A DNA stretch of 64,000 bases from Girardia tigrina. Lineage: Eukaryota. The translations under genes were made by a program, and so were the position numbers. Each line of letters opens with the position of its first letter. Positions within the stretch are counted from its first letter, which is position 1. The notes under the pieces were generated by a model, which did no database searches, was not told where the DNA came from, and was given only the letters and a program-made list of their open reading frames with translations. The DNA lies in assembly GCA_001938485.1 (NCBI GenBank), contig MQRK01217099.1, forward strand, positions 7,127-71,126. The letters run 5' to 3'. Below, piece after piece: positions 23,362-64,000 of the stretch.

Positions 23362-23409
<48 letters not shown>

Positions 23410-26400: not shown

Positions 26401-28823
26401 TAATTGGAATCAAAATATAATTGTAAAACCATTATATTTTGATTTAAATGAAACTGCGGTTTTAATTTTATTTTGGAAAACGTAATTATTAATGGAAATA
26501 TTATTTTATTTTTTATGTAAAAAATGGGTAATTTAAAAAATTAAAAAGTGAACGCCATTTTTCACAATTTATTTTCGTAATTAATTTCGGCGGATTACCC
26601 GCCATCTTCAGACTAAATTAACACTTGCTTTTTGCAGCTTATATATGAGAAAGGTGATNNNNNNNNNNNNNNNNNNNNNNNNNNNNNNNNNNNNNNNNNN
26701 NNNNNNNNNNNNNNNNNNNNNNNNNNNNNNNNNNNNNNNNNNNNNNNNNNNNNNNNNNNNNNNNNNNNNNNNNNNNNNNNNNNNNNNNNNNTCTCCAATG
26801 TATGTGGCGTTACACCCATTACATGTATATTTATAAACAAGATCGGAGCACAAACCGAGAGGAGTGGGAGATTTATTACTGAACATATCACGAATTTTAT
26901 ATGATTTAAATTCCTTAGTTAATTTAAAAAATGTTAAATTAAACGAAATTGCGATTTTAAATTATATTTTCAAAATATTATTAAATCCAAAGTAATTTTT
27001 AAATTTATTATGAAAACGAAATGAAAAATACTAATGTATAGAATTGGGAAATTTAATTGAGAAACAGGTAAATTTCAAAGTGCAATAAAATTGAAATTAA
27101 ATAAAAGACGAAACAAAATCTTTGTGACAAAATTTTAATTCACTTTATAATTTTTTTAAAAAAAAAGTATAGAATTTTAATTCGAAAAGAATACGATAAC
27201 CATATTTATATTTATATCAATTCTTATTTATAATGGTCTGTGTAAAAAGAAAGTGCAAATGTTCCTAGGAAATATTTGTTTAAAAAAACTCAAATTATGG
27301 TAGAAATAAAGTTTTGTGTTCATGACAACGTCTTTTGATCAAGAACCCAATAGCAGTGATCGCAGCTTGCCTTTTAATCCGATTCATTGACTGAAATAAA
27401 TAAAATACAATGCAAGTAAATGAAAAGTTACAAATTGTGAATAAGGTAAGATAGCCGTATTTTGAATAGGGCTCAAATTTTGAACGATTAAAATACCTGA
27501 GTCCTGAAGATGAGTAATGCTTGGTGACTTGATTACCTAATCCTGATTGAAGATAATCAGCGCCTTATTGCAGTTTCTTTAATAAATTACTGTAAATATT
27601 TGCATGAATGAATCTTATTAGTTATATATGTTTATAATGCATTAAATTATAACCAGGGGTCAGGGTGTGACCCCATGGAACCTAAGTGCGATATTTTTAT
27701 AAAAATAACTCTCTCATCATACAAATAAAATAAATTCGGCATTATCAGCCAGATTTATCTTCTTCTTTATGTCAAAAAAAATGTCACAGAAAACCAGAGC
27801 CAAGTAATATTCCATTTTTGGGCAATACCCCTTTTAAAATATCCCTGGGGGTCATACGCTGACCCCAGGGATCCTCTAAGGGTTAAATATATTTTAGTGC
27901 AGATCTTTTGTCTTCTAACAACCATAAAAAAATTTTCCGTCTGGGCAGCTGTATAATTTTAATAATAATAAATATTTATGATTTTTAATTTTTATAATTT
28001 TTTAGATATTTTTTCAAATGAGGAAAATCAACCAAAATGCAACAACCAAATTATTTAAATAAAATCTAAATTTTAAGAAAATAACTATTAAAAAAATGGA
28101 AGGGGATAGCGTACCCAAAATTTTACTGTGAATTTAAAATTCTGATAAAAGACATTTTGTCAAATCCAGAAAAAAACAATAAAAACATTGTGATAAATAA
28201 TATTTTATAAATTAAATATTGTTGAATAAATTTTTGTTTAATTATATTTTCGTATATTTAAAGTTTAAAAACTCTTATAAATTCACTAGTAAATAACCCG
28301 TCATGTATGACGGATATAATTATATAGTTATATAATTATATAATTACAATTGTAAGTAGATAATTATATTAATAATAATTCATATGGAAAATTATCATGA
28401 ATAATTCTGCTAATAATAATTTTCCATATGAATTATTATTAATATAAATATCTACTTACAATTGTAAGTACATAATATGAGCGTTAGTGAAGCAGTGAGT
28501 GACTTGGGCTTTTATAATATAATAATATAATTGCTGATGTAGGAAATACATCAAAACATGTTTTCAGATCATATTTTCAAAAAACTTTATTTTTCGTTTC
28601 AATTATAGTAAGAATAACATTTTTTATTACTTTCTATACTAAAACAAAACTTTTTGATAATTTCAATAATATAACTTTCATAACATACCACGAGTGTTCA
28701 GCATTGAATCCTGCCTACAAAGAAATGATTTTAATTAATATTAATTCATTTACACTATATAAACTTGTCAATAGTAATTTTAGTCTTTAAGTTTAATAAA
28801 ATTAGAATAATGTTTTTGCATAA

Positions 28824-28872
<49 letters not shown>

Positions 28873-31149
28873 TATGTAAGTTTTCAAAAGCTCGCGTTAA
28901 GAATAAAGACACGCAGAATTGCCATATATTCAAAATAAGAATTATTTAAAATTCTTATCTTATCATCATATTTAGATACTGATAATTTATTTTTATATAA
29001 AATGATAGTAATGAGTTATTACATTACAAATATGTTTTGACAATTTATATATTATTTACATATTAAAGGGTGTTTCAAAAAGATAATGGTTTTAAATTTA
29101 ACTATCTTATTTTACTTGAAGATTTTCATCACTGATCCTTTCATTTTCGTGATCTTTTATCACTCTAATAAGATAATTATTTATCGTTTTTCTATTTTGT
29201 AACCATTGAGCGCTTGCTCAAATGCTTGCTCAAGAAACGCATTCTTATTGAAAACTCAGGACAAAAGACAAAGGCATTCCATAAAATTCACGCGATTTTT
29301 AAATAGCGACAGTTTTCTTAATACAACTGGGGCACTTTTTATTGCATAATGAGAAAAAAACATGAAATATAGAGAATAAATTATTTCAATAGGAAGTTGT
29401 ACTTCCCTTAGCAGGTAAAAGTTCTTTCATGTGGCGAGACATGCTTTCAGACGCAGCAGAACAAAAGTTACGTACGGCTGAAGAGGAAAACCATACTTCC
29501 TGACATTTTTCCCACAGTGCCTCCTTGGGAACATTTCGTTTTCGAACCTCACGTTTCAACAGGTTCCAGACTGTCTCTATCGGATTCATGTCTGGGCTGT
29601 TTCCAGACCAAGAAGACTCGGATACTACATTGTTCTCCAAGTGTGATGGCGTTGTTCTTGAGATGTGACATAGAGCGTGGTCTTGTTAGAAGATCCACTC
29701 CTCAATGCCGTACCAGTTCTCTACCTGTGATAGAATACATGTGTCAATGATTTGACAGTATTGTTGGGATGCCATTGACCCTTCCACTCTGGGTAGACGT
29801 CTAGGTCAGCTGCTGGAGATGCATCCCCAGATCATAAATTCAAGGAGGAAATGCTTGCCGACTTTGCACATGGCCTTGTTTAGTCCGCTCTCCAGCACAT
29901 CTTCGAGAGAAGATGCTGTTCAGTGCACATGTTACTTTGCCCACTGAAGTCGTCGTAATTCATGAATATTCATGAATGGTCTTCATCCGAATATTAAATT
30001 TACCACAGAATTGGAAGTAGATAATAAACTTCCCTTTCTGGACATTCTTGTCACCAGGATGAATGGAGGCTATAAAACTGAANNNNNNNNNNNNNNNNNN
30101 NNNNNNNNNNNNNNNNNNNNNNNNNNNNNNNNNNNNNNNNNNNNNNNNNNNNNNNNNNNNNNNNNNNNNNNNNNNNNNNNNNNNNNNNNNNNNNNNNNNN
30201 NNNNNNNNNNNNNNNNNNNNNNNNNNNNNNNNNNNNNNNNNNNNNNNNNNNNNNNNNNNNNNNNNNNNNNNNNNNNNNNNNNNNNNNNNNNNNNNNNNNN
30301 NNNNNNNNNNNNNNNNNNNNNNNNNNNNNNNNNNNNNNNNNNNNNNNNNNNNNNNNNNNNNNNNNNNNNNNNNNNNNNNNNNNNNNNNNNNNNNNNNNNN
30401 NNNNNNNNNNNNNNNNNNNNNNNNNNNNNNNNNNNNNNNNNNNNNNNNNNNNNNNNNNNNNNNNNNNNNNNNNNNNNNNNNNNNNNNNNNNNNNNNNNNN
30501 NNNNNNNNNNNNNNNNNNNNNNNNNNNNNNNNNNNNNNNNNNNNNNNNNNNNNNNNNNNNNNNNNNNNNNNNNNNNNNNNNNNNNNNNNNNNNNNNNNNN
30601 NNNNNNNNNNNNNNNNNNNNNNNNNNNNNNNNNNNNNNNNNNNNNNNNNNNNNNNNNNNNNNNNNNNNNNNNNNNNNNNNNNNNNNNNNNNNNNNNNNNN
30701 NNNNNNNNNNNNNNNNNNNNNNNNNNNNNNNNNNNNNNNNNNNNNNNNNNNNNNNNNNNNNNNNNNNNNNNNNNNNNNNNNNNNNNNNNNNNNNNNNNNN
30801 NNNNNNNNNNNNNNNNNNNNNNNNNNNNNNNNNNNNNNNNNNNNNNNNNNNNNNNNNNNNNNNNNNNNNNNNNNNNNNNNNNNNNNNNNNNNNNNNNNNN
30901 NNNNNNNNNNNNNNNNNNNNNNNNNNNNNNNNNNNNNNNNNNNNNNNNNNNNNNNNNNNNNNNNNNNNNNNNNNNNNNNNNNNNNNNNNNNNNNNNNNNN
31001 NNNNNNNNNNNNNNNNNNNNNNNNNNNNNNNNNNNATAGAAAATTGCTGATGATGATTTTTTTAAAAATCGAAACGTGTCCAATAGTTGTATTAAAAAAG
31101 CTTTGATCAAATTATATTTTCGAAATACTAAACTTGCGTTCACAAGACT

Positions 31150-31189
<40 letters not shown>

Positions 31190-34100
31190 TTCATATTATA
31201 AACTTTTTTGATGAAAAATAAACGCAAACTTACTCTGCCATTTTTAAATACAATGATATTAAAAGACTTATCAAACCATCGATCATATCCTTTACCATGT
31301 ATTAAGGAGTGAGCTATTTCATCAAGTTGTTTTTCGTCAGTCGGTAAGAAGTTTCCATCTGTTTCATCGAGTACCAATATGAAAGCAGCCTAAATAATAC
31401 ATAGTATTTTGAAATGTCGCGTCTAATTTAAAGCTCTATAACTTAGCAAATAAATTATTTAACGTCTTTCAGTAAGTCAGATATATTAAGTCAAATATTT
31501 TCATTATTTATTGATTAATTTGAACCGATGGATTCATTAAAGAAAATGTTAAATTTTCATTTAAGATAGTTATCATGTAATATTATCACAAAATTTGTTG
31601 AAAGAGTTGATTGTATAAAGCTATATAAAGTATACTTTTCATCAATGCGAAAACACAAGGCACTGTTGATTTATCTGTAATGAGTGAATGGAATGTATAT
31701 AATTGTGAATAGCCAGCAGGTTCTACTCTAAAACACCATCACCAAAAACTTGAGAAGATGCCGCAAGAATCAAAAAAGCTATGTCACTTGAAAAATTAAT
31801 AATTCAACATTTTCTAATAATAAAAAACGAAGTCCATTAACTGTTTGTTGATAACGGTTAGGAACCACTGATGTGTTGTGAGGTCCATCATCGTTATAGT
31901 TCTTGATATTCCTTAATAGAGTAAGAGCTAATAAAAATGCAATTCCAGCTTGTAAATCCAAGTATAAACTATATAATCGTAATGTTTTTTTTCTAAAGTA
32001 AGAAATTATGATTCAACTACTCAAAAATTGGTTATTTGAAAAATATTGCTACTAATTCAACACTAAATTTTCTTGCTGTATTTTGATGCAACAAATGTTA
32101 TGGAATTAGACTTTAATATGTTTACTTATATTTTGTAGTTTTAATATTTTTTTAGAAATTGTGTTCTTATGTTTTAAATTTCAATGTTTATAATTGTGAG
32201 TTTTACATAAAAAATTAATTTTTTTTATTAATAAATATAAAACAAAATGATTTTCGACAAAATGAATTCGACGATATGATACGGAACCATGAAATCACGA
32301 TTTCAAGAATCAAGAAGTAATTTTTGATCAATTAAAATAGGAGGATACCACAAAGCAATTATTCAAATTGTTTTTCAAATCAAATTTTAATTGAATAACT
32401 TAATTTCACAATTTCTCGAAAAAGAAAACATTTAATGAATACAAATTTTCAAATATCTCATCGAAGAAAATCGTTGAAAAATTTTTATTGATTCACTTTT
32501 GAGTTTCATTTAAAAATAAATTACCGTAATTTCCGCACTATAAGACCGTATTATAAGCCGCACACTAAATATAAGGATTTTAAGCCCATTTTAAATAAAT
32601 CAGTTCAAAGGAAATAAACTAATAACACTAAATAATATATTCACCAAAATATTTTATTAGTTTTCTAAGAAAGCATTTAAATTTTCATGATACTCAGAAT
32701 TGCTATCAGTTACTATATCTGAATCCACAGCTTGATTTTTGGTCTCAATTACACCTTGTACGCCAGAACTATTAATAATGCCTGCCTTAATGAAACCGTT
32801 AATGATTGTTGATGTTGGAATAGTGTTCCAACTTTCAAGAATCCATTTAGTTATAGTAACAAAGTCAACTGTTCGCTGTCTACCTGTTTTAGTAAAAGTA
32901 TGATCTCCGGACATCCTCCACTCTTCCCAAGTGTTTCTTAATTTGGCTTTAAATGATTTATTGACTGAGATATCTAGAGGTTGAACAATCTTAGTCAATC
33001 TGCCAGGGATAACCGATAAGACAGTATTGGCACATCTCAGTAATGACATTACAGCTTCGGTAAGATGTACACGCATTGAATCACAGATAAGCATTGATGA
33101 TGATGTGTGGAGGAACCCACCTGGTCTCTTAATAAAAACTTCACCAACCCATGCTTGCATTAATTTTTCGTACATCCATCCTTTTTCATTTGCCTTTACT
33201 ACAACTCCATCAGGAAATTTACCTTTAGGCAACGTTTTCCTTTTAAAAATTACCATTGGTGGTAACTTTAATCCACTCGAAGAACAAGCTAAAACAACAG
33301 TACAGGATGTTTTTTCGTTTCCCGTTGTCATAATTGGAACTGATTTAGCACCAACCTGTTCAATGGTGTGATTAGCTGGCATATCAACAGGGATAGATCC
33401 AGATTGAAAATGTTATCATGATGTATATTCTTCTATGTAATTTTTGTTTGACAAAACTCACGGAATATGCTGGCCTTTTCTTCAAATTCTGCAGGAAGGC
33501 GTTGGGCTAATGTCGTTTTGCACCGAATTGAAAGATTATTTCGTTTCATGAATCTGGTGCACCAAGATTGTCCTCCTGAGAAATTCTTAATTCCCAATTC
33601 TTTAGCTAGTGTCTTGGCTTTGAGCCGTATAGAGACCGTTGAAATGCTTCTACCAACTGATCTCATTTCATAGACTCAATTCTTAAGATCATCTTCAAGA
33701 TGTGCCCATCTTGGAGTGTTTCCACGAAAGCTCTTACGAGATTTTTTAACTTGTCTCAACTCATCTTCTTGCTTTCTCCATCTTCTGATCATTGACTCAT
33801 TGACATTGAGTTCTAATGCAGCTTTACGATTTCCATTTGATTGAGCTAATATACCTCTTAATTTCCACTCTGATGTATATGAAGATCGGATCATGGCTAA
33901 AATTGAAATAATTTATTATAAAGTAAACTAACCGTAAAATAAAAATATACCGTAAAAAATTTTGAATTATGACTTGTTTAAAGAATATTTAAACAAATAT
34001 TTAAATTAATTTAAAATATTTTTTGAGCACTTAAAACATTAACGTATAAGCCGTAACTCTTAAATTATGACTCATTTCAGGTTTTTAAGTGCGGCTTATA

Positions 34101-37100
34101 GTCCATAATTTACGGTGGCTAAAATTTAATTTGAAAAGAAATTGTTATTTAAAAAAATTATTTCTATTATATAAATAAAAGAAAAATTATAATGAAAATT
34201 AATTTATAACTAGTAAATCAAAAAAAATTTAAATCCATTCTTAGTCGGCAGAACTCTACCTACCCAGGAGAATTTTTTAAAGTTTTATTGTTTATTTTGA
34301 TATATTTTGATTAAAATTTCTATACTTAAGTTAACTAAATTTATATTTTCAATTCCTTGTATATTTTACAATTAACTAGAGGTGTATGTGTTTTCTTATT
34401 TTTTTTCTCATATGAAGGTGTGAAGCATTCTCATCATTTCAAGGTAACGATTTTTTTCAAATTTTATTATTTTTATTACATTATTGTTTAATTTAAAGAA
34501 ACTTGGATTAACAAAATATTTTCAAAAAGCACAATAAAAAATTAAAAAATTCTATTGACCAAGTAGAGTTCTGCCCACATAAAGCATGGATATAAAAATG
34601 ATTTTTGATTTACTAGTTAGGCTTTAAATTGGTTTACTGGACTTTATTTTTCAATTTATTTTTTGTATCATATAAACTACTTATCATTTATAGGCAGATC
34701 TTTTTATTCTAATACTGTTTAGGAACTCCAATTTGACCATTTTGATTCAATTCTGAGACCTAAAAAAGTTTTTTTTGATCAAATTTTCACATTATTATTT
34801 ATTTTCACCCTATTGAGTTCTTGATCAAAAGATGTTGTCATTAATACAAAACTTTATTTCTACCACAATTTGAGTTTTTTTAAACAAATATTCCCGAGGA
34901 ATATTTGCACTTTCTTTTTACACAGACCATTATAAATAAGAATTGATATAAATATAAATATATTTATTGTATTTTTTTACGAATTATATATATATATANN
35001 NNNNNNNNNNNNNNNNNNNNNNNNNNNNNNNNNNNNNNNNNNNNNNNNATATATATATATATATATATATATATTACGAATTAAAATTCTATACTTTTTT
35101 TTAATAAAAAAATATAAAGTGAATTAAAATTTTGTCACAAAGATTTTGTTGCGTCTTTTCTTAAATTACAATTTTATTGTACCTTTAAATTTACCTGTTT
35201 CTCAATTAAATTTCCCAATTATATACAATAGCATTTTTCATTTCGTTTTCATAATAGTTTTAAAAATTACTTTGGATTTAATAAAATAATATTTTGAAAA
35301 TATAATTTAAAATCGCAATTTCGTTTAATTTTAACAACTTTTAAATTACCCCTTTTTACATAAAAAATAAAATAATATTTCCATTAATAATTACGTTTTC
35401 CAAAATAAAATTAAAATCGCATTTTCATTTAAGTCGATTTACTTGTTTTACAATTATATTTTGATTCCAATTAAAATTTCCAAAAAAAAATTATAATTAC
35501 ATTTTTAATTTACTTCGATTTAATCCTGTAAAATGAAGTTACAAAAAATAGTTTCATTTAGAAAATAAAATATTAAACTTTATTTTACTTTTGATTTTAT
35601 TTCAATTAAATATTTTCATCAAATTTGAAGTTTACTTTTTTACTTTATAATAAATCTTTGCATAAATCTTTTAATAAACCTACCGTAAAATTTATTTTAT
35701 TTTCTAACATAAATTAATTTTTACATTAAATTTCTGAAACTCTTATTTTAACATATCTATAACAATATTTTACGGGATGTAATTGTTTAATTATTTATTT
35801 GATAAGATTGTAAATTCAAAAATTTTATGAACTCAATAACGCTCCCAAAACACCAAAAATGAGTAAGTGTGCGAATTTTGGAGAAAATTGCTTGCGTATA
35901 AAGTCTTCAAAAATAGGTTTCTAAATTACATGGGTATATATATATATATATATACAGGGTGCCCATAAAGTCACTTGACATGTTTGAAATCTTTTTTTGA
36001 AAAATCTGTGAATGCTAGCAAAGCAATTTATTAATAATATACATCGATAGGTACTACCAAATTATGTAATATAAAAATTTTAACTTTTTATAAAATATTT
36101 TGTAAGTAGTATTTCGTAATTAAATTATTTAAAAATTTCGAAAATTGTAACAAAATTTGTAGAGCCAAACTTAATCGAAAATTCGTACATTAATTGAAGC
36201 AAAATAAAATGTTTACATAATTTGTTTGTCTGAACCAAATNNNNNNNNNNNNNNNNNNNNNNNNNNNNNNNNNNNNNNNNNNNNNNNNNNNNNNNNNNNN
36301 NNNNNNNNNNNNNNNNNNNNNNNNNNNNNNNNNNNNNNNNNNNNNNNNNNNNNNNNNNNNNNNNNNNNNNNNNNNNNNNNNNNNNNNNNNNNNNNNNNNN
36401 TTCAACTATATTATGCAAACAACAAGTCAATTACTGCAACGATCCGCTTATACAGATTGCAGTATGGAATTCAAAACATTTGCTCAAGACAAGGGTTGAC
36501 GAATTTGATTCACAAATTTGAAAACAACAGGATCAGTTAAAGATGCTGACAGGAGTGGTCGTCCAAGCGTTTCGAAAGAAACGCTAGCTGAGGTGAATGA
36601 AGCAACAACCAGAATCCAAGAATTAGATGCTCAAGGTACCTCAAGCACAAGAATCATTGCCAGAGATTTGAATCTTTCAAAGTCAACAATTTGGAATGTT
36701 CTTCGCACAAAATTAAAACACCATCCATACAAAATNNNNNNNNNNNNNNNNNNNNNNNNNNNNNNNNNNNNNNNNNNNNNNNNNNNNNNNNNNNNNNNNN
36801 NNNNNNNNNNNNNNNNNNNNNNNNNNNNNNNNNNNNNNNNNNNNNNNNNNNNNNNNNNNNNNNNNNNNNNNNNNTGGCCATGTTAATACCAAAAACTGTG
36901 TGGTATGGGCTGATCAGAATCCTCACCGACTTCATTCACGACCCTTATTTTCTCCTAGAATTACCGTTTGGTGTGGTTTCACAAGTAATTTCATGCTTGG
37001 TCCTTACTTTTTTGAAGAACGTGCTAATGGGACTGTTCACACTGTTACTGTTACTGGTGCTAGGTACCTGGACCTTTTACAAACATTCATCATTCCTCAA

Positions 37101-52100: not shown

Positions 52101-54160
52101 TTTATTTAAAAATTAGATCTTAATCGAATCACTTAATCAAACTTTTTCATAATAGTCGGGAGGCATTAAATCAATTGATCAATTAATGTTTACAGTTTTA
52201 ATCTCTTTTTAAAATAAATTTTTATCTTAATTTTATTCTTCATTGAAATATAAAACGAAATTTGAGAGACAATTTAGCGCATATATTTGAACGTGATCAG
52301 GAAGATTCGCGAAGAAGTTATTAATTTTTACTGACTCAGTTTTATATTAGTTCAGTAATTCAGTTGTTGCGAGTTGGTTGGCTCGCATCGTTGAAGACCA
52401 GAGAAAGTCGAATTAAAATAACCGGAATGAGTGAGATATTAGTCAGGAGATGTTTGGCTATGATAGACAGTAATTTAAACGAGTCCGAAATAGATTAGGA
52501 GTGTGATTGGGTTCGCTCTGAACTAAACAAGGCAGATGTCTTAACTAGAATACCAAGAAAATGAAATGAAAGGAAATGTTGTATTGTTCAACAAGAGAAA
52601 AAATTAAACGAAGCAAGAAAGAGTCATGAACGACATCATTTTGGGATCGAGAAAAGCCGTCTGATAGCAGAAAAAGGTATTTAAGTATCGAAAAAAGATA
52701 GGGAGAGTGTTGTTCAAAACTGCCAACGGTGTAGTAGTATTGATCCCGCCCCTATAAAAACACCAAAGGAATCATTAAAGGAAAACATGTTGGGAAAGAT
52801 TGGCTATAGATCATACCCATTACAAGAATAGAGTATATTTATCAGCAATTGATTGTGGACCCAGTCGATTTTCAATTTCGAAAGAAGTAAAAACTGAAGG
52901 AGCCGACGACGTAATAAAACGTCTCGATGAATTATTTATAGAGCATGGAGCTCCAATAGAAATCCTTGTTGACAATGGAGTAGCTTATACAGGGAACAAA
53001 TTCAAACACTTGTGTATTAAATGGAGTGTTAAGATAGACTATCGATATTCGCATGGTCCCAGTACGAACGGTATTGTGGAGCGCTGTCACCGTACGATAA
53101 AAAGAATAGCGAAGAGATCTAATATTACTATTGCTGAAGCTGTGCATTGTTATAACATTGGTCCTAAAAAGAAGAAAATATGGAATTAAATCTCCAAGTG
53201 ATATATTATTTAACTACAATTGGAGGATAATCGGTGAAAAAATAAACGTAGAACTGAGGAGTGACGATTGTAGAATGTTTGAAGTAGGAGAGAAAGTATA
53301 TGCCAAGCCGTGTCAACATGTTCGATGTACAAGTCAATTGGGTCGGGCTATAATCACAGCAAAAATTAGTCACAACAAATACGAAGTAGACGGAGTTCTG
53401 AGACATATTCAGGATATCAGAAAACGATCTGATGATCAGAATAATTCTGAAACGAGTTTATTGATGACTTATAAACCATGGAAGACGAGAGCGAAGCAGT
53501 AGATGAGGAGTCGAATGTTGAAGAGATTATGTACCAAGCAGATCGTGACGAGCAACACAGAAGCGATATAGAGAGAAGAGATTCTCTATTCTCGATTTTA
53601 TTCCTTAGAATTTAAATAATTTTAGAAAAATTAATTAGTAAATGTTTTAATATATTATAAAATATAATGGGAAATAAGTTTGCAAAATTTCAGTTCAATC
53701 AGATAAAGAAAACTAAGAGAAGTCATTTCTATTATATATATTATTTCTATTTCAGTACATAACATACAAACTGAGCGAATGTATATAAAACGCAGTAAAA
53801 ATAACACTTAATTCGAAAAATTTTATAATAAAAAATTGTCAATGTTATTTTCTACTAATTGTAAAATTAAAATATAGGTAATATATTTCATTATATATAT
53901 ATATATATATTTACAGATTCAAAATAAATTAAATTTAAAATTAATAACTAACAATCGATTTATTTCATAAGTGAAATTCTGTTAGTTCTTTAAAGTAAAA
54001 AATGTCAAACAGTTGTGAAGTCTATTAATAGATAATTAACAAAAAGAAACTACTTGATTAGTTTTCCTGTTGATGTATCGCTAAATGAAAACAAGTTGCG
54101 AAAACCATGGTCAGGTTTCATAGAAACACAATTACACATGTTAATTTGCATTACTTTCGA

Positions 54161-54203
<43 letters not shown>

Positions 54204-57200
54204 NNNNNNNNNNNNNNNNNNNNNNNNNNNNNNNNNNNNNNNNNNNNNNNNNNATATATATATATTACTACTCAGGGAGTGTGCACTGAAAAATCTATAA
54301 AAAATTAAAAAAATAAATTTTAAATAAAAAAACTTTAAAAAATAATTAATAATTCATTTAAATAATTATCATGTTTCAAAAAATATCAAGTAAATATTTC
54401 AATTTTATTGGAAAGTGTAATCATTTCTTTTCAGATTAATAATTTCTTAATTTCACATAAAAGTAAACAAATCATGGAACAATCTTATTTCTTTCGTGTT
54501 ATTTTCTCGGAAATTTAAAAATCAATAATAAATTAATATACTCAATTAAGTAACTCTGATATCATAACAAATAAAAAATTGGCTGAAGATTAAAATAATG
54601 AGAAATGATTAAGATAAATCAAATGTACGAGTCTAGTGAATTTTGATCGATGTATCTTTCCTTGTGATAACTTTAAAAGAAAATAAAAGAACAAATATTT
54701 AACAGACTTATTAGTTTTCCACAAAAGTAAAATTCTAAATTAATATGATTATATTACATAACAATAAAAAATTACTAAAACTCATTATAAACATAATGCG
54801 TTGGAGAAAGTCTACTAAAGAAGAAAGATTTATAAATTCACTCAGATGAAGACTATTTGAAATTTTTAGAACTAGCCGAAAATAAAGTTAAAGCTGTGTC
54901 AAGTCAAATGCGCCTGATACAAGAAAGAGTTTGATTTTACGAGCCAAGCATTGGTGAATTGTGCTAGCACCTTGCACAATTTCATATTTTGCATTTATAG
55001 TCCCACAAAAAAGCTAAATAGATTTCGACAATGAGTTTTTTTACAAATCAGGTAGCCTGATAAAAGTTTCAAAAAAAAGTACAACTCATGTTGTGAGTTT
55101 TGAAATACAAACATATTAATTATATGCTCGTTTAGAAATCGCTAAACGTTTAAACGTACTAAAAAACGAAAACGTTTAAACGGTCGTAAAAACGCTAAAC
55201 ATGACCACCTCGAGAAGCGTACCACCGTAACACAGAGATTACGAAATGGGGATCTGATTTTTGGCGGGGATTTAATAATGTTTTTTTAAATATTCATAAA
55301 TTATTAGTGTGAATTTAATAAAGCGTGTTCAGCTGGTGTTCTATTTCTGGTGACATTACATATCAATCTAATCGGAGTAGTAGATTCACCAAACAAAACA
55401 GCATACAAACAAAAAACTTACAGCATTCTGAATTTCCCCTCACAATATAGATGTTAAAAAAGTTTTTTTAATTAAATATTGACATGTAATTCTAAAAATT
55501 TATTGTATTTAAAAAAATAATAAATTAAATTTGAAAATAAGAATTTTAATAAATAAAACATCAGTATTTACAATTCAGTATTTTATGTATAATCAATCTG
55601 GTAGGAAAGAAAACAAGATAAAAATTCCTCAGCAAAAATTGTTTGTTAATTGTTATAGAAATAAAGTTTTGCGTTTTCATGATTTTAAATCTTGATCACG
55701 ATCCCAACAGTAGCAAATTTAACATGCCACTGTCTTCGTACCTCTTTATATTAGGTGTATAACTTAGTTTTTTGGATTTTCTAAGAGATGGTGTAACCTT
55801 TGTAATAAGCATTATTTACAGTTGTACGTACAGATTTTTAAAGTACTGAAATCGAGGTATTACAATTAAGTAGGTCATTGACCTTAAATGCGTCATAAAC
55901 ATGTTTTTAATCACGTTTTAGCATGACAACTTTCATACCAACAAAACAGCATTTGCGGGAAGCACTACTGTTTTGTTTTAATCAAAAGAAAAAAGCTGCA
56001 GACAGTTTTCGGCTTCTTGAAGAAACTTATNNNNNNNNNNNNNNNNNNNNNNNNNNNNNNNNNNNNNNGTATAAACGTTTCAAAAGTGGAGATTTCGACG
56101 TAAGTGACAAAGAGCGTTCCGGTCAACCAAAAAGATTCGAAGATGAAGATTTGGAATCATTACTGAAGGAAGATTCTACTCAAACAGAGAAAGTGCTTAC
56201 AAAACAGTTAAATGTTACTCAAGCAGCCATAAGTAAACATCTACATACTATGAAAATGATTCAAAAAGAACGAAAATGGATACTACATGAATTGAATCAA
56301 GCCAACATTGAAAGTCGATTACTGATATTCAATTCATTGCTTACAAGACAACGAAGATGGTCGTTTTTGCATAATATTGTGACTGGAGATGAAAAATGGA
56401 TTTATTATGTTAACTCTAAACGCAAAAAATCGTGGGTTCATCCCGGCGAACCGTCCACGTCAACAGCAAAAAGAAACATTCATGGAAGCAAGGTTATGTT
56501 GTGGTTTATTTGGTGGGATCAGAAAGGTGTACTGTACTATGAGCTGCTGAATTTGAATGAAAATGTTAATGCAGAACGTTATCAACAACAGTTAATGAAA
56601 TTGAACGATGCATTGAAGGACAAACGTCTTATTCCAGTCAACAAACAGCGCACAGGGATTTTGCTCTATGACAATGCTCGGCCACATGTCGCAAAACAAG
56701 TAAAAAACACGTTGGAAGCACTTAAATGGGAAATTCTACCGCATGCTGCCTATTCACCAGATTGTGCCCCATCAGATTATCATCTGTTCCGATCAATGCA
56801 AAGCGCTCTTCGGGACCAGTACTTCAGAAACCAGGAACATATAAAAAATGGCTGGAACAATGGATCGCATCAAAAGACCAAGACTTTTTTTTCGATGGAA
56901 TTCATAATATGTCTGAAAGATGGTCGAAAGTCATAATTAACGATGGAAAATATTTTGATTAGAATAAAACTTTAAAAATAATAATAAGTTTTTTGACATA
57001 ATAAGTTTTATTCTAATCAAAATATTTTCCATCGTTAATTATGACTTTCGACCATCTTTCAGACAAATTATGAATTCCATCGAAAAAAAAGTCTTTCTAA
57101 AACTATAAATTTTATTTTATAGAAATTTTTTTATGAAATTCTATTTGGAATCAATTTAAATGTTTTGTTCTGATTTTAAAGAAAAATTTTAATCAACAGA

Positions 57201-58729
57201 CAACAATTTATCAATATGCACGATTCTGCAATGTATTTGAAATATTTTTATACATTTAGTAAATATTTGTGCAGTATTACTTATCTGTTCTGCAAAAAAA
57301 TCCAAAAAACTAAGTTATACGCCTAATAGTTCTGGAATTGTGCGTAGAGGAGTGCCATTTTAATTCTCTTCTCAAGAGTGCGTCGTGTCGGACTATTTAT
57401 CTGGAAAAAAATGAGAATAGTCAGTGTTAAAACGTAATTACGAATTTCAGCGAAATAAAATACATTTCCGGGGATAGATTAAAACAAACATCCTCCCATT
57501 ACTTTTGGAACACCCAATATATAAAAATCACAGTCAAATTTTAAATCGTTCGAAAAATGCATTTCAAAGTTGTAAATAAATTTAATATTTTTTAAAAATA
57601 AATAAAATTCATTTTAATTTTAACCAATAAAATTTATAAAAATTTTTTTTAGTATTCTAGTAAAAAATCATGATAATTTGAAATTATAAATAATAATCAA
57701 TTGAATAATGCAAACCTACGCAAGTTTTGGTTATAATTGTTCTGATGACAAATCGACTTGTAATAATAATAGTGTCGAAAATCATATTAATGTTCTTAAT
57801 AATTATTATTTAATTAATTGAAATGAACCCCGCACAATCCTAACAAAGATAAGAACATGGAAACTTTTATTATGGCATTAACTTCCTGACACATTTGCGT
57901 TGTTTATATATTGTCTTACAAAATAAAGGAGGATAAAAGGAACATGCAATAAAATGGATGTGGTTCAAAATGATATTAAAATCGGGCCAGACAATCACAG
58001 GAGAGCTATAAGGCATTAATTGATACGTTTGAAGCAAGCAATAGCCGAAAAACGGCCAGAATGGGCGACCAGACACGAGAAATTGATTTCCCATCATGAC
58101 AATGCTCGTCCACATGTTGCAGTACCGGTCAAAAATTATTTGGAAAATGCCGGATGGGAAATTCTACCTCACCCGCCTTATAGCCCAGACAGCTCCTTCT
58201 GATTACCACTTGTTTCGGTCGATGCAGAATCACCTTTCTGGAATACGGTTCACCAATGTTGAAGGTATTAAAAAATGGCTTGATGACTTTCTCGGTGCAA
58301 AAGATGAGAAGTTTTTTTGGGATGGAATCCATAAATTGCCTGACAGATGGGAAAAAGCTGTCGCTTCCGATGGACAATATTTTGAATAAAATATTTTTTC
58401 ACTTTTATACTTAAATAAATGGTTTTTTTAACAAAAAATACGAAATTAATTAGTTGTATACCCAATACATTTTCGTATTTTTTAGAACTTGACATTAAGA
58501 GGTTAAAATCGAACATTAATATATGAAAAGCAAATTTGTATTGAAATATCTTACAAACCAAATCCTTGTTTTCCAGGTTTTCGGGCCAATAATGTCATTT
58601 ATCCATCCTTGGTAAGTTAATAATTTTTTTAATAATTGTCGTCTAACAAAACTTAAAGTTATCCATGTACCCATTGAAAAAATAAACGCAGCTACTAGAT
58701 GATCACGAGGAGATTCTAAATGAAGATGT
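9003..58729 (-). CDS. CPT1: Carnitine O-palmitoyltransferase 1-like gene, 14 coding exons, 5' end outside window. Exons: 58729-58555, 51987-51886, 51838-51701, 42546-42146, 38903-38747, 31389-31234, 28714-28689, 23019-22948, 22901-22817, 22773-22609, 17567-17433, 17370-17147, 14020-13885, 9068-9003
   Basis: Manual splicing at GT..AG boundaries with consistent phases gives one uninterrupted frame. It contains [91 protein letters not shown] and [16 protein letters not shown], all hallmark choline/carnitine acyltransferase (CPT1-type) motifs. Confidence 0.95.
9680..10620 (+). mobile_element. Ty3/Gypsy integrase, polypurine tract and start of 3' LTR (TG at 10530)
   Basis: C..C zinc motif, [32 protein letters not shown]; PPT gagggga then TGTGAGG. 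Confidence 0.9.
11700..12780 (+). mobile_element. Highly degenerate mariner-like element
   Basis: HTH remnant ([17 protein letters not shown]), many stops, mariner-like right end aaaacttttgtgacaacctagta. Confidence 0.5.
13450..13790 (-). mobile_element. Possible degenerate non-LTR RT fragment
   Basis: Minus-strand [14 protein letters not shown] resembles the LINE GFR.GRSTIDQIFTLR motif; heavily disrupted. Confidence 0.35.
13885..14020 (-). CDS. CPT1: CPT1 penultimate exon
   Basis: [39 protein letters not shown]; cag acceptor, gtaat donor. Confidence 0.96.
14121..14688 (+). mobile_element. Non-autonomous Helitron (family copy 1)
   Basis: 3' hairpin cgccagacgtggcg followed by ...ccCTAG|t; both ends shared with the inverted copy at 41034-41358. 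Confidence 0.7.
14340..14548 (-). mobile_element. Short GC-richer retroposed insertion with 19-bp target-site duplication
   Basis: taataaccttatcaactaa at 14340-14358 and 14530-14548; T-tract near the left end. Confidence 0.65.
15352..16360 (-). mobile_element. mariner element, core hidden by Ns
   Basis: N-terminal [22 protein letters not shown]-terminal [16 protein letters not shown]; TIR tattagggtggagtcataagtt. Confidence 0.85.
17147..17567 (-). CDS. CPT1: Two CPT1 exons (17567-17433, 17370-17147) with a 62-nt intron
   Basis: [21 protein letters not shown]; [12 protein letters not shown]; WKLSTSQTP. Confidence 0.95.
18068..19672. mobile_element. TA-flanked MITE hosting a nested mariner
   Basis: Imperfect TIRs CACCAAAGCCCCGCTATGC / GCAAAGCGGGGCCTTGGCG, with TA on each side. 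Confidence 0.6.
18286..19556 (+). mobile_element. Full-length defective mariner (mellifera-like)
   Basis: ~30-bp TIRs, TA TSD; transposase from ATG 18465 ([10 protein letters not shown]) to 19479 with stops and frameshifts; HDNAR and YSPDLAPSD motifs. Confidence 0.93.
19770..20195 (-). mobile_element. Gypsy integrase C-terminus, PPT and LTR start (same family as 9680-10620)
   Basis: Reverse complement matches ...[13 protein letters not shown], the PPT, TGTGAGG (19876) and the LTR motif cccagatgg. Confidence 0.85.
20196..21150 (-). mobile_element. piggyBac transposase fragment interrupted by a Tc1 element
   Basis: MDN(F)[10 protein letters not shown]...LTLVGTM | [34 protein letters not shown] motifs across frameshifts. 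Confidence 0.8.
20524..20933 (-). mobile_element. Internally deleted Tc1 element
   Basis: TIRs cAGGTGCAAAA(T/G)TTTGTGAACGCTTGTT at both ends, TA flanks; retains only the transposase C-terminus (...[11 protein letters not shown]). Confidence 0.8.
21200..21360 (+). mobile_element. Chapaev3-like transposase C-terminal remnant
   Basis: [38 protein letters not shown] resembles the HSHLDFFPENLGAVSDEHGERFHQDI motif; superfamily label is from memory. Confidence 0.55.
22609..23019 (-). CDS. CPT1: Three CPT1 exons (23019-22948, 22901-22817, 22773-22609) with 46- and 43-nt introns
   Basis: [12 protein letters not shown]...; YTPDGHC...PERLKW; ...[27 protein letters not shown]. Confidence 0.93.
23245..24582 (+). 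mobile_element. Full-length defective mariner-like element (divergent subfamily)
   Basis: TIR aaagttttttccgttactc / gagtaacggaaaaaacttt; [31 protein letters not shown]. Confidence 0.85.
25838..25970 (+). mobile_element. LTR-retrotransposon gag N-terminal fragment
   Basis: [22 protein letters not shown] resembles the gag P..F.G..D..EF...C.R.F pattern. Confidence 0.45.
26542..26919 (-). mobile_element. 5'-truncated Penelope-like element (GIY-YIG end) with 13-bp flanking duplication
   Basis: [19 protein letters not shown]; taatttaaaaaat at 26529 and 26920; the homologous copy at ~35340 lacks the insertion. Confidence 0.85.
26573..26617 (-). ncRNA. Minimal type I hammerhead ribozyme motif
   Basis: tttagt-CTGAAGA-t-ggcgg(gtaat)ccgcc-GAAA-ttaa-TT-acgaaa; palindromic stem III AUUAAU. 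Confidence 0.65.
27650..27886. mobile_element. piggyBac-like right end
   Basis: Subterminal palindromes ggggtca..tgacccc (two copies); terminus ...AAGGG|TTAA. Confidence 0.6.
28286..28523 (-). mobile_element. Short non-autonomous Helitron with internal fold-back
   Basis: Minus-strand 3' hairpin ccgtcatacatgacgg followed by CTAG|t; 5' tatattataaaagcccaagtcactcact. Confidence 0.65.
28689..28714 (-). CDS. CPT1: CPT1 26-nt microexon encoding AGFNAEHS(W), containing the catalytic His
   Basis: tttctttgtag|GCA GGA TTC AAT GCT GAA CAC TCG TG|gtatgt; exactly fills the gap between ...KNGR and (W)ADAPIVGH with the correct phase. Confidence 0.93.
29324..29965 (-). mobile_element. Tc1 (DD34E) 3' half
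   Basis: MIWGCIS, QD-34aa-E (SPDMNPIE), KGSTTSY*; TIR TA-caactggggcac. Confidence 0.88.
29972..31155 (+). mobile_element. Penelope-like element (RT C-terminus, N-filled core, 3' pLTR)
   Basis: [26 protein letters not shown]; 3' end homologous to the 43530 and 63235 copies. Confidence 0.88.
31043..31084 (+). ncRNA. Minimal hammerhead ribozyme motif (antisense to CPT1)
   Basis: attg-CTGATGA-t-gattttt(tt)aaaaatc-GAAA-cgtg-TC-caat. Confidence 0.65.
31234..31389 (-). CDS. CPT1: CPT1 exon (AAFILVLDE...[22 protein letters not shown])
   Basis: Carnitine acyltransferase RWFDKS signature; 156 nt; canonical splice sites. Confidence 0.95.
31480..31970 (-). mobile_element. Degenerate MULE transposase fragment
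   Basis: [42 protein letters not shown]. Confidence 0.6.
32524..34115 (-). mobile_element. pogo-superfamily DD35D (POGK/Passer-like) element, frameshifted and partly deleted
   Basis: TIR CCGTAA.T....ACTATAAG; Brinker-like DBD (33676-33894), CENP-B HTH (33433-33666), DDE_1 with D-35aa-D (32657-33382). Confidence 0.9.
34207..34619. mobile_element. MITE with ~55-bp imperfect TIRs
   Basis: taactagtaaatcaaaaa...ggcagaactctac / gtagagttctgcc...tttttgatttactagtta. Confidence 0.7.
34690..35940 (-). repeat. Interspersed repeat containing copy 2 (34806-35773) of the ~1 kb repeat; outer parts match the hAT-interrupted copy at 59660-59701/63053-63205
   Basis: Shared agatcttttttat..taata.tgtt.aggaactcc and aaaatgagtaa...ataggtttct motifs. 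Confidence 0.75.
35955..37607 (+). mobile_element. Tc1/mariner DD41D (rosa/Visitor-like) element with ~125-bp TIRs, inserted in (TA)n
   Basis: Near-identical long TIRs CAGGGTGCCCATAAAGTCAC...; VWCG, GPYFF, GAPPH...[10 protein letters not shown]; second catalytic D codon appears deleted. Confidence 0.9.
37715..38598 (+). mobile_element. Degenerate mariner (irritans-like)
   Basis: KKLCSRFVP remnant; right TIR ggccgggtactaattgaacgcaccacg-TA. Confidence 0.7.
38747..38903 (-). CDS. CPT1: CPT1 exon ([34 protein letters not shown])
   Basis: Conserved LTAGER...W motif; phase matches both neighbouring exons. Confidence 0.92.
39008..40169 (-). mobile_element. Internally deleted Tigger/pogo element
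   Basis: TIRs CAGTAGAACCTC...GTCACACTC; pipsqueak-like HTH ORF 39664-39852. Confidence 0.75.
41034..41358 (-). mobile_element. Non-autonomous Helitron (family copy 2)
   Basis: Ends match 14121-14688; hairpin ttcgccagaccaggcgaa plus CTAG. Confidence 0.7.
41360..41950 (-). mobile_element. Helitron-like repeat with ~130-bp internal direct repeat
   Basis: Direct repeat 41362-41490 / 41707-41830; minus-strand start tatatataat...gtgtgtttgtttgtc. Confidence 0.4.
42146..42546 (-). CDS. CPT1: CPT1 exon ([11 protein letters not shown]...TTRIP...HKGRFF)
   Basis: Coincides with ORF 42142..42546; tttag acceptor, gtaag donor, phase 2. Confidence 0.96.
42650..43510 (+). mobile_element. Degenerate MULE with terminal ~15-bp GGTTTG(A/T)CC repeat array
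   Basis: [31 protein letters not shown]; repeats at 43409-43510. Confidence 0.7.
43564..43607 (-). ncRNA. Minimal type I hammerhead ribozyme motif in a Penelope pLTR (sense to CPT1)
   Basis: tattg-CTGATGA-t-gatg(tatgtaag)catc-GAAA-catg-TC-caata; GUC cleavage triplet; palindromic ACAUGU. Confidence 0.75.
44280..45381 (+). mobile_element. hAT (ZMYM1/Tip100-like) 3' fragment
   Basis: Dimerisation motif FPNI..LL.IFLT...[23 protein letters not shown]; terminus ...gctacaccactg. Confidence 0.82.
45399..48385 (+). mobile_element. Internally deleted Ty3/Gypsy LTR retrotransposon, both LTRs present (45399-45664; 48122-48385)
   Basis: ~265-bp highly similar LTRs; PBS TGGTATCAGA at 45668; PPT tggggg; flanks ttcat/tccat; gag (CYYHRKFG), protease (FLVDT..., PILGADF); pol mostly deleted. 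Confidence 0.92.
48418..50160 (+). mobile_element. Tigger (TIGD4/6-like) pogo element, defective
   Basis: TA-CAG..GACTCCGGATAACCCG left end; [38 protein letters not shown]. Confidence 0.88.
50465..51586 (+). mobile_element. rosa/Visitor-like Tc1-mariner element with catalytic-core deletion
   Basis: TIR CAGTGCGTTCA.AAAGT.ACT.TGCAC, TA TSD; KFRETGSV...RSGRP, LYPYR, DFYLWG. Confidence 0.85.
51701..51987 (-). CDS. CPT1: Two CPT1 exons (51987-51886; 51838-51701) split by a 47-nt intron
   Basis: [34 protein letters not shown] | YLISIKPL...YLISSNY; canonical splice sites, both phase 0. Confidence 0.93.
52270..53560 (+). mobile_element. Gypsy pol fragment (RNase H plus integrase), second family
   Basis: [51 protein letters not shown]. 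Confidence 0.85.
55751..57326 (+). mobile_element. Near-intact mariner (mauritiana/Mos1-like, DD34D)
   Basis: ~30-bp TIRs, TA TSD; ORF 55923-56962 with one visible late frameshift; [29 protein letters not shown]. Confidence 0.95.
57975..58465 (+). mobile_element. mariner 3' half
   Basis: [15 protein letters not shown](fs)[14 protein letters not shown]; right TIR. Confidence 0.9.
58555..58729 (-). CDS. CPT1: CPT1 exon (TM2 region, ...LLTYQGWI...KTRIWF)
   Basis: ttttag acceptor, gtaag donor; 175 nt; resembles the CPT1 LLSYHGWM...KIW segment; not in the ORF track. Confidence 0.85.
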
Positions 58730-58869
58730 CTAAAATATGGTAAATAATAACAATAAGTAGTAAATACTAAAATAATGTTAAACGTAAAATATTAGAAATA
58801 ATTAAAAAAGAATAACTTAAATATCAATTACTAATTACGTTCATTGTGATTTTCAATGTGTTTTATTAC

Positions 58870-59508: not shown

Positions 59509-59701
59509 GTGTACGTCATATTAATGGCAATATGAGTCACTATGATTAATTGAATTTAATCAATTTAAATAATATTTATTTCACGTTTTGGATATTTTTA
59601 TATTTTGTATGATTAGTAAAAATATATATTATATTAGTATAACCTACTTATAATTTATAAGTAGATCTTTTTTATGCTAATATTGTTCAGGAACTCCGAT
59701 G

Positions 59702-62700: not shown

Positions 62701-63052
62701 CAGTAAAATTAACTGCACTTTTATTAACTTCAGTAATACCTTTTGTGGTATTTGCCTTGTACAAGTAATTTCCTTGGTGAAATTCAAAATGGACGTTTGA
62801 GATTTTGTCAATAAACAGGTAACATGCTTTTTTATAAATTCATCAGAATATTTAAACAAAAATATATTGAATAAATAAAATATTTTATTTTAAAATGATG
62901 TCTTAATTTTTAAACAGGAAAATCTTGGTTTTGTAACATTGTGATAAATCGGATATTTGTCAACGAGAACCCAACCCGATTTTCTAAACTGTAACCGGAA
63001 CCCGACCCGACACGATCCCGGGTCAGTTTCGGGTCACAATCGCCCATCTCTA
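59702..63052 (-). mobile_element. hAT (hobo/Hermes-like) element with 8-bp TSD; transposase split by a nested ~1.6 kb insertion
   Basis: TSD CTCCGATG at 59694-59701 and 63053-63060; TIR TA(A/G)AGATGGG; ACCCGA subterminal repeats; KGMRPLS/LIDVAAQYG/LDVWTE (62200-62830) and VTDN, FLTEFRRASNDLE...PTI (59800-60540). Confidence 0.88.
61361..61585. repeat. GGCCTAATGGCC minisatellite
   Basis: More than 10 GGCCT(A/G)AT units around an N gap. Confidence 0.75.
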
Positions 63053-63201
63053 CTCCGATGGGACAGTTTTGTTCCAATTTTGAGACCTTAAAAAGTTTTA
63101 TTTAAATCATTTTTTATCATCGAAAATGAGTAATTGTGCAAAGCTTGGAGAAAATTAATTGAGAAAAAAGCCTTCAAAAAATAGGTTTCTGAATTCCATG
63201 G

Positions 63202-63232
<31 letters not shown>

Positions 63233-63238
<6 letters not shown>

Positions 63239-63690
63239 AGTCTTGTGAATGCAAGTTTAGTATTTCGAAAATATAATTTGATTAAAGTTTTTTTTTATAT
63301 AATTATTGAACATGTTTCGATGTTTACAAACATCATCATCAGCAATTTTCGAATGTTTAGTATATGAATATTGAATTGTTTGAATAATACAATTTTAACA
63401 GATATATTTACTTTAAAAGGTAACGAATAAATTAATTATTATTATTTATCAAAGTATTATTGGGTAATAATGGCAAAAAGAATAATTTAAATAAAAATTT
63501 CTTAGAAGGCGCTTGAGGGACAATATGTATACAAATAAGCAAATAGAACACAACATTAGGGTAATATTAGACAAATTATGTACAGATGCACGAGTTAAAA
63601 AACAATTAAAAGAAGAAAATACTGAAGAATACAAACAAATCATTAAAATTCCATATTCTGAAGGATTTAGAGCATTTAAGAAGAGTATTA
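63233..63690. mobile_element. Penelope-like fragment: inverted pLTR (minus) joined to RT-EN linker ORF (plus)
   Basis: 63233-63350 is the reverse complement of 31036-31155; plus-strand NMYTNKQIE...IKIPY. Confidence 0.75.
63305..63346 (-). ncRNA. Minimal hammerhead ribozyme motif
   Basis: attg-CTGATGA-t-gatgttt(gt)aaacatc-GAAA-catg-TT-caat. Confidence 0.7.
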
Positions 63691-64000
63691 AGCCTGATAG
63701 CAGGTCCTGTCTTTGAGATGGGGTCATCTCCGAAATCCATGGCGCTATTGTTAGTGCCGATCGAACGCTTCTCTTCAGTTTACTGAAGACTGATTCCATG
63801 GGATTAAGGAATGGGGAATAAGGGGATAAGTGAACCACTTCCATATGGTTCGGAGTGGCAATGCCTGTGTGAATTGAGGCATTGTCATGAATTAAATAAT
63901 GTTTTGTGAGAGGAAGGTGGTGAACGAGTTCAGAAATGAATTCTTGGTATTTTTCTCTATTCACACTACCAACCACCACCTTAAAATGTACTGGCCCGTT
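63690..64000 (-). mobile_element. IS630/Tc1-like transposase C-terminal catalytic region
   Basis: LIHDNASIH...HLSPYSPFLNPMESVFSKLK. Confidence 0.85.

Follow-up and report, generated by a model that had tools for sequence, protein, structure and literature searches.

Minimal hammerhead motifs in and beside the CPT1 gene of Girardia tigrina are probably relics of truncated Penelope-like elements

Four minimal hammerhead motifs lie in, or upstream of, the known exons of a carnitine palmitoyltransferase 1 (CPT1) gene in the window analyzed here, a 64,000-nt stretch of Girardia tigrina contig MQRK01217099.1. We consider it very probable that they are the ends of 5'-truncated Penelope-like element (PLE) insertions of two families, A and B, carried as passengers that rarely, if ever, cut CPT1 RNA. 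They are likely inert, ordinary transposon relics and, as found, carry little weight, being additional examples of a motif that has been known since 2014 to number thousands of copies in animal genomes.

Results

The positions and strands that a sequence-only reading of this DNA had given for the four motifs proved accurate, and all four cores are intact (Table 1). The stem II sequences that it listed are also present, but in an order that does not match the coordinates, GGCGG/CCGCC belonging to the 26.6k motif. Every motif contains CUGANGA, GAAA and NUH in type I order, a base that stays unpaired between position 9 and position 10.1, and a G10.1-C11.1 pair, and the stem II changes between copies are compensatory. 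Helix I comprises 4, 5 and 4 consecutive pairs in the family A motifs (31.0k, 43.6k and 63.3k, respectively), while stem I of 26.6k pairs at five of six positions with one mismatch. The stem III sequences ACAUGU (found twice) and AUUAAU are perfect palindromes and hence dimer-capable; the ACGUGU of 31.0k pairs with itself through two G-U pairs. A structural descriptor returned five strict matches among the 18 CUGANGA...GAAA sites in the window, and 200 local dinucleotide shuffles yielded a mean of 0.035 matches per window (maximum, one).

Table 1. Hammerhead motifs, PLE remnants and CPT1 exons, in window coordinates
Feature	Position	Strand	Description
26.6k PLE insert	26541..26920	-	380 nt, 5'-truncated
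26.6k motif	26573..26617	-	Minimal type I hammerhead, PLE family B; core at 26611; UUUAGU-CUGAAGA-U-GGCGG/CCGCC-GAA-AUUAAU-U; triplet AUU; AUUAAU at 26585-26580; predicted cut 3' of U26579; coding start ATG at 26605
31.0k truncated PLE	29969..31185	+	RT piece and hammerhead
31.0k motif	31043..31084	+	Minimal hammerhead, PLE family A; core at 31047; AUUG-CUGAUGA-U-GAUUUU/AAAAUC-GAA-ACGUGU-C-CAAU; triplet GUC
Degenerate fifth PLE-type hammerhead	40653..40685	+	CUGACGA-U-GAGGG/CCGUC-GAA-AUUAAU-A; antisense to CPT1
43.6k family A pLTR remnant	43517..43977	-	Assigned by DNA similarity
43.6k motif	43564..43607	-	Minimal hammerhead, PLE family A; core at 43602; UAUUG-CUGAUGA-U-GAUG/CAUC-GAA-ACAUGU-C-CAAUA; triplet GUC; ACAUGU at 43575-43570; predicted cut 3' of C43569
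63.3k family A remnant and inverted linker	63203..63689	-	Remnant 63500-63203
63.3k motif	63305..63346	-	Minimal hammerhead, PLE family A; core at 63342; AUUG-CUGAUGA-U-GAUGUU/AACAUC-GAA-ACAUGU-U-CAAU; triplet GUU; ACAUGU at 63315-63310; predicted cut 3' of U63309
CPT1 gene model	13885..58766	-	13 GT-AG exons
CPT1 exons 1-7 of model	58766-58555, 51987-51886, 51838-51701, 42546-42146, 38903-38747, 31389-31234, 28714-28689	-	
CPT1 exons 8-13 of model	23019-22948, 22901-22817, 22773-22609, 17567-17433, 17370-17147, 14020-13885	-	

All four motifs appear to be terminal-repeat ends of 5'-truncated PLEs. PLE protein fragments (RT, linker or GIY-YIG) adjoin three of the four. Located at 26907-26794, 29969-30082 and 63501-63689, they match proteins that carry the Pfam domains RVT_1 and GIY-YIG (of the five proteins scanned, GIY-YIG passed the curated cut-off in one and was weak in three). 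The GIY-YIG piece shares 95% identity over 38 aa with the RT and GIY-YIG proteins P0021/P0022; for the RT and linker pieces, identity is 53-63% and 30-54%. The fragments fit the order of EN+ PLEs, in which RT and then a C-terminal GIY-YIG lie upstream of the pLTR hammerhead. Protein fragments, shared DNA and the features described by Cervera and De la Pena in 2014 (PMC4209133) thus bear out the proposed PLE origin and dimer-type anatomy.

The individual insertions differ in what they retain. At 26.6k, the start of GIY-YIG is followed by a 133-N gap, the hammerhead and a 38-nt tail, and an 11-bp target duplication flanks the insert (26931-26921 and 26540-26530); its host sequence is another repeat, of which an uninterrupted copy lies at ~35.1-35.8k. 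At 31.0k, a C-terminal RT piece precedes a 953-N gap, the hammerhead and ~100 nt from the beginning of the ORF, which then gives way to (AT)n. The 43.6k remnant (43775-43517) is 75% identical to the 63.3k copy and, with no protein fragment of its own, is placed among the PLEs by the DNA that it shares with 63.3k and 31.0k (75-81%). An inverted duplication at its 5' side (43813-43977 versus 43624-43788, 93% complementary) ends before the hammerhead. Upstream of the 63.3k remnant, an RT-EN linker fragment lies inverted on the + strand (35% identical to P0025, E 4e-5). The inversions at 43.8-44.0k and 63.5-63.7k and the tail and duplication at 26.6k can be set beside the 5' truncation, inverted 5' copy and 30-40-bp tail described for PLEs in PMC8557442.

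In each of the five copies, the degenerate one included, an ATG stands where the core meets stem II, and four of the five keep a perfect core although the family A copies diverge by 9-25%. Such preservation fits a recent origin from diverse active subfamilies and is compatible with selection as well. In a DNA-type run, summed contig depth reached 250,000-330,000 over 43.3-44.1k versus 16 on a neighboring exon bin, a quantity that is no copy number and comes from bins that also contain other repeats.

The CPT1 model is open through its 13 exons (670 codons); neither its initial ~80 codons nor its last exon was found. It confirms that 26.6k and 43.6k lie in the sense orientation within CPT1 introns, the latter in intron 51700-42547, while 31.0k is antisense in intron 31233-28715. 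In run X13, from a related organism, contig 1 connects 42544 to 51699 without a gap, that is, the exons that flank the 43.6k intron; the spliced contigs come from runs labeled as other organisms (B and D), whose RNA status is a guess and which may lack the 43.6k insert. Of the runs found to contain this sequence, none is on record as RNA, and several are RNA by guess. Reads were examined over 42100-54100, a span that ends short of the 58.8k exon and of the motif at 63.3k, and no piece from another sample bridging the site of the 43.6k insert was found among the contig pieces listed there. Run X2 has zero cover at 42902-43302, which by itself proves nothing.

The 63.3k motif lies upstream of the first CPT1 exon identified. 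The sequence-only reading had placed it in the CPT1 transcript on the condition that the upstream exons lie beyond the window, and it probably does lie inside the transcript. Because searches for relatives of CPT1 gave nothing close (best 49% identity, 51% over a short stretch) and none gave a homologue of the 58.8k exon, we searched 58767-64000 for the missing N-terminus with a profile of distant homologues. Its best score was 4.0 bits, below those of 65 of the 66 homologue N-termini that were left out as a control, one tilted toward conserved termini since the 66 profile proteins had been chosen from 126 long proteins for an MAEA-like start. In addition, the X13 contig extends 620 nt past 51838, 306 nt beyond the content of the two known upstream exons.

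No single motif has stable helices I, II and III within one molecule, helix III requiring two copies, and the modeled minimum-energy folds of the 43.6k and 63.3k monomers mispair the core. In a 63.3k/43.6k double hammerhead every helix can pair, with six pairs in stem III and four and five in the two stems I. Relative to the monomers at 37 °C, this active dimer is nonetheless modeled at +3.7 kcal/mol with 10-nt flanks and +6.9 kcal/mol with 40-nt flanks, and 20 °C brings no improvement; homodimers are as unfavorable (+3.1 to +8.3 kcal/mol). These nearest-neighbor energies understate active dimers because they leave out Mg2+ and tertiary folding. The lowest-energy 43.6k/63.3k complex is an inactive duplex with swapped stem II strands. 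Over the 19.7 kb between the two copies, the effective concentration would be 34 nM for a random coil and 0.05-3 µM for a globule of 200-50 nm; in the coil model, such a tether lies ~25-fold below a 3-kb tandem and 400-fold below a 0.6-kb tandem. Further combinations were set aside: dimers of 26.6k with 43.6k or 63.3k pair at three of six stem III positions and lack stem I, and 31.0k cannot join a cis pair because it is antisense to CPT1.

Discussion

In the parent element, according to published work, the motif occupies a terminal repeat, spans the start codon and would act as a dimer in processing tandem element RNA, with the element's own protein probably assisting. Each copy was likely reverse-transcribed from RNA left uncut at the predicted site, since the copies retain 38 to ~100 nt beyond it. 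A lone copy lacks a stable stem III, and misfolding is predicted for it. All three sense copies are probably carried in the CPT1 transcript and removed by splicing. The ACAUGU common to 43.6k and 63.3k reflects membership of the same high-copy family (~75% identical) rather than selection as partners, and with one motif every ~13-16 kb such pairs are to be expected in long genes.

Lunse et al. reportedly also dealt with minimal hammerheads (min-HHRs) in PLE pLTRs. The motifs found here resemble the metazoan min-HHRs of PMC4209133 in their core, the unpaired base that follows position 9, the G10.1-C11.1 pair, a helix I of 4-5 bp, a palindromic stem III and their occurrence mostly as solitary copies of truncated PLEs; their 6-nt stem III palindrome recalls the arthropod and rotifer variants, while helix II has 5-6 bp as opposed to 7-8 bp in S. 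mansoni. With the dimer model in mind, that survey had already filtered its matches for neighbors at distances up to 50 kb; only the sequence families are new here. Poseidon of Anolis carolinensis (PAc; PMC11167929) is similar in an ORF that begins at hammerhead stem II with the ATG likewise at the core/stem II junction, in AT-rich targets and in the use of uncut RNA as template, but PAc is active and full-length whereas our copies are truncated remnants. Host-retained ribozymes such as the HDV-like ribozyme of CPEB3 and the amniote intronic hammerheads also place a ribozyme motif on the sense strand of an intron in a protein-coding gene; they are described as conserved in mammals or amniotes, with self-cleavage for that of CPEB3 (PMC6765202, PMC10274809). 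The motifs found here are transposon ends that occur in high copy number and lack a stable stem III.

An improbable alternative is that the sense copies pair with transcripts or RNPs of the abundant PLE family to which they belong and are sometimes cut in trans, at a low rate that splicing tolerates. Contigs with family A sequence do occur in three runs (X2, X7 and X13), of which two are RNA by guess; strand, level and RNA ends cannot be read from contigs. PMC11167929 reports that the Anolis PLE hammerhead cut only with protein in vitro, which would favor assisted cleavage, and that even for this active element the RNA-seq data contained no reads with an end at the site of cutting. Slow intronic hammerhead cutting is reported to leave splicing intact (Dye 2006; Fong 2009; both cited in PMC2995048); the homodimer energies, as poor as those of the heterodimer, argue against this alternative.

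More improbable still is the proposal of the sequence-only reading that 63.3k and 43.6k, two separate insertions, pair in cis on nascent CPT1 RNA and cut both introns. The sequences are compatible with such pairing, both copies are on the CPT1 sense strand, and the absent N-terminus and longer X13 contig favor a common transcript, although a 50-N gap at 61452-61501 might conceal the first exon. Timing might also allow it: the 3' splice site of the upstream intron lies 15.2 kb before 43.6k, a distance transcribed in ~4 min if the human rate of 3.8 kb/min applies, versus 5-10 min for splicing (PMC2995048). Formation and cleavage of the dimer found no support, however, given its unfavorable energy, the preferred inactive complex, the low effective concentration and 12 ACAUGU sites on the sense strand of the interval. 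According to PMC4209133, a single S. mansoni min-HHR did not cut and dimers or trimers cut poorly. Furthermore, a double cut would remove three coding exons, as the copies sit in different introns around them, and yet the gene is intact.

It is just as improbable that a PLE protein acts as chaperone when the family is active, so that the two insertions 19.7 kb apart build a double hammerhead, excise the three-exon piece and let transposon activity throttle a host gene. If this were true, many long genes here would, with one relic per 13-16 kb, be latent two-part switches. A real long-range cis dimer would mean that scattered transposon relics can form split ribozymes, with damage to host transcripts or their fine-tuning as the outcome. 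It would impose a fitness cost on sense-strand PLE insertions and would provide rare in vivo evidence of cutting by metazoan PLE hammerheads.

That the four motifs are chance matches in AT-rich DNA is refuted by the shuffles and the PLE context, with compensatory stem II changes and a constant position in PLE ends, even though an Rfam scan of the whole window gave no hammerhead family match at E<=1 and one strict match appears accidental. With no hammerhead family matched, the Infernal check proposed by the sequence-only reading came out negative, and we regard it as not applicable to minimal forms. The accidental match, at 49409+, sits in a DDE_1 transposase remnant without G10.1-C11.1 or a palindrome. 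The degenerate hammerhead at 40653 failed the strict descriptor, with a mismatch in stem II and a poor stem I.

Hammerhead motifs and their host elements

The four hammerhead motifs are, in our view, very probably genuine and ordinary Penelope-like element (PLE) relics. A sequence-only reading had placed minimal hammerhead ribozymes (min-HHRs) at four sites, named here by position (26.6k, 31.0k, 43.6k and 63.3k), and all are present as described. In each, under the conventional hammerhead position numbering, CUGANGA is followed by one unpaired U and a stem II whose first pair is G-C, GAAA accompanies a self-complementary six-base stem III segment, the base at the predicted cut site is not G, and stem I is short. 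A structural descriptor applied to the whole window accepted 5 of 18 CUGANGA...GAAA sites as strict matches, against a mean of 0.035 in shuffled controls (n = 200), and four of the five are these motifs. The fifth, at 49409(+), was rejected as chance: it lies inside a DDE_1 transposase remnant, which we take to be of pogo/Tigger type, and has neither the G-C pair nor the palindrome. A further, degenerate PLE-type copy (40.65k) failed the strict descriptor test; its ATG stands at the usual place and opens a stretch of 13 residues, and matching found no PLE protein fragment nearby. The Rfam-type check proposed alongside the motifs was run on the window and matched no hammerhead family at E<=1. 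The motifs show every min-HHR feature testable here and sit in PLE ends; they failed both the monomeric three-helix test and the Rfam test.

Three of the motifs (31.0k, 43.6k and 63.3k) belong to one repeat family, A, in which 63.3k is 91% identical to 31.0k across 148 nt and 75% identical to 43.6k across 263 nt. The 26.6k motif belongs to a separate second family, B, and the frame immediately upstream of it matches the RT and GIY-YIG proteins P0021 and P0022 at 95% identity across 38 residues. Among five such PLE proteins scanned, RVT_1 and GIY-YIG were each found in four, most GIY-YIG matches falling under the curated cut-off. The 26.6k insert spans 380 nt, ends in a 38-nt tail and is bordered by an 11-bp target duplication; the repeat hosting it has an uninterrupted copy near 35.3k. 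Truncated 5' ends, inverted 5' copies and tails of 30-40 bp have been described for PLEs (PMC8557442). The ATG begins at the junction of core and stem II in all five copies, a likeness shared with an Anolis PLE (PMC11167929). Summed contig depth across 43.3-44.1k in a DNA-type run is 250,000-330,000 against 16 in the adjacent exon bin, which marks very repetitive DNA and gives no copy number, the bins containing other repeats too.

Every copy retains 38 to about 100 nt past its predicted cut site, which suggests that the insertions here were templated by uncut RNA; uncut RNA is also the main insertion template described for the Anolis PLE (PMC11167929). The 31.0k and 63.3k copies end on the same terminal base followed by (AT)n, and this shared end suggests a preferred start of reverse transcription and microsatellite targets. 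Judged from its sequence, the inverted duplication beside 43.6k would, in CPT1 pre-mRNA, fold into a long hairpin immediately upstream of the hammerhead, a possible candidate substrate for editing or small RNAs.

Features in the window
Feature	Coordinates	Strand	Details
26.6k hammerhead	26573-26617	-	family B
31.0k hammerhead	31043-31084	+	family A
43.6k hammerhead	43564-43607	-	family A
63.3k hammerhead	63305-63346	-	family A
Degenerate PLE-type hammerhead, fifth copy (40.65k)	40653-40685	+	stem III AUUAAU
C-terminal RT piece	29969-30082		upstream of 31.0k, 953-N gap between; matches same PLE proteins
Inverted linker piece	63501-63689		adjoins 63.3k; matches same PLE proteins
Inverted duplication	43624-43977		5' side of 43.6k copy; 165 nt, 24-nt spacer, 93% complementary
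Family A copy end (31.0k)	31141-31185	+	
Family A copy end (63.3k)	63248-63202	-	
CPT1 micro-exon	28714-28689	-	26 nt, AGFNAEHSW
Carn_acyltransf-like fragment	40237-40480	+	decayed, in-frame stops
Open frame	344-1414	-	356 codons, cysteine/histidine clusters
Repeat-bounded element	45399-48385		~2.7 kb

Placement of the motifs in CPT1

The carnitine palmitoyltransferase 1 gene (CPT1) was modelled on the minus strand as 13 exons running from 58766 to 13885, GT-AG throughout and open across 670 codons, without its first ~80 codons. The claim that 26.6k and 43.6k lie in sense within CPT1 introns holds (introns 28688-23020 and 51700-42547); the 31.0k and 40.65k hammerheads are antisense. For 63.3k, the same claim had presumed that upstream exons lie beyond the window, and this premise is favoured. 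A profile of 66 homologue N-termini, chosen for a conserved start, reached a top score of only 4.0 bits on the minus strand of 58767-64000, a value exceeded by 65 of the 66 N-termini when left out, and contig 1 of sequencing run X13 (labelled organism D) extends 620 nt past 51838, 306 nt beyond the capacity of the two known upstream exons. Unless the 50-N gap at 61452-61501 contains the first exon, upstream exons therefore probably fall outside the window and the CPT1 transcript probably takes in 63.3k.

The X13 contig also joins 42544 straight to 51699, with 27 differences in 399 nt, and contig 8 of run X2 (organism B) has zero differences to the 42.1-42.5k exon and ends at exon edges. Its depth of 24.5 over two upstream exons predicts 13.3 for bin 51724-52124, the listed value, a prediction that is arithmetic from listed depth, the upstream-exon piece having no entry of its own among the listed rows. 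With the RNA status of both runs guessed and the 43.6k insert in these samples putative, the joins show normal CPT1 splicing in relatives and say nothing on the inertness of the 43.6k motif. The CPT1 micro-exon, flanked by introns of 2.5 and 5.7 kb, presumably adjoins the predicted catalytic histidine motif.

Prospects for cleavage

Cleavage of the sense copies in trans, at a low and tolerated rate, is improbable. A lone Schistosoma mansoni min-HHR stays uncut and dimers or trimers cleave weakly, which counts against a dimer in cis (PMC4209133); a review concurs on very low rates, dimers included (PMC6765202). The Anolis PLE hammerhead is described as cleaving solely with the element's protein, and its cut site shows no RNA-seq read ends (PMC11167929). 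Of nine Xenopus retrozyme dimers, one cleaved; introns hold 42-44% of the copies, below expectation for intron size (bioRxiv 10.64898/2026.07.22.740005), and this depletion leaves room for some host cost. The motifs here are unlike the intronic ribozymes that hosts have retained, for example that of CPEB3 (PMC10274809).

Still less credible is the proposal that 63.3k and 43.6k pair in cis through ACAUGU as a double hammerhead, giving long-range cleavage of CPT1 RNA. The structure can be laid out on paper, stem III having six pairs and the two stems I four and five, and timing would permit it: the 15.2 kb from the upstream intron's 3' splice site to 43.6k take ~4 min, against 5-10 min for splicing, on human rates that may not be this animal's (PMC2995048). 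However, the active dimer models 3.7 to 6.9 kcal/mol above two monomers (37 C), and since such modelling leaves out Mg2+ and tertiary contacts, so that genuine tandem dimers would score poorly too, only the relative distance penalty is trustworthy, an estimated 25-fold or so versus a 3-kb tandem. A loop-entropy formula puts the tether concentration at 34 nM (coil) or 0.05-3 µM (globule), and the predicted complex of lowest energy is an inactive, strand-swapped duplex. A double cut would also excise three coding exons, yet CPT1 is intact. At 4-5 motifs per 64 kb, same-family sense pairs are expected by chance in a 50-kb gene. Pairs within 50 kb have already been sought on a dimer model (PMC4209133), and the literature searched yielded no report of cis pairing between separate PLE insertions inside a host pre-mRNA.

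Other features

The decayed fragment antisense in a CPT1 intron, which precedes the degenerate hammerhead by ~170 nt, weakly resembles the N-terminal catalytic part of choline/carnitine acyltransferases (Pfam Carn_acyltransf, E=0.023) and may be a paralogue piece brought in by a retroelement. The 356-codon open frame had no Pfam match at E<=0.01. Within the large CPT1 intron, an element with decayed internal frames lies between ~280-nt direct repeats that start TGTAG and are 90-97% identical, and looks like an LTR retroelement remnant.
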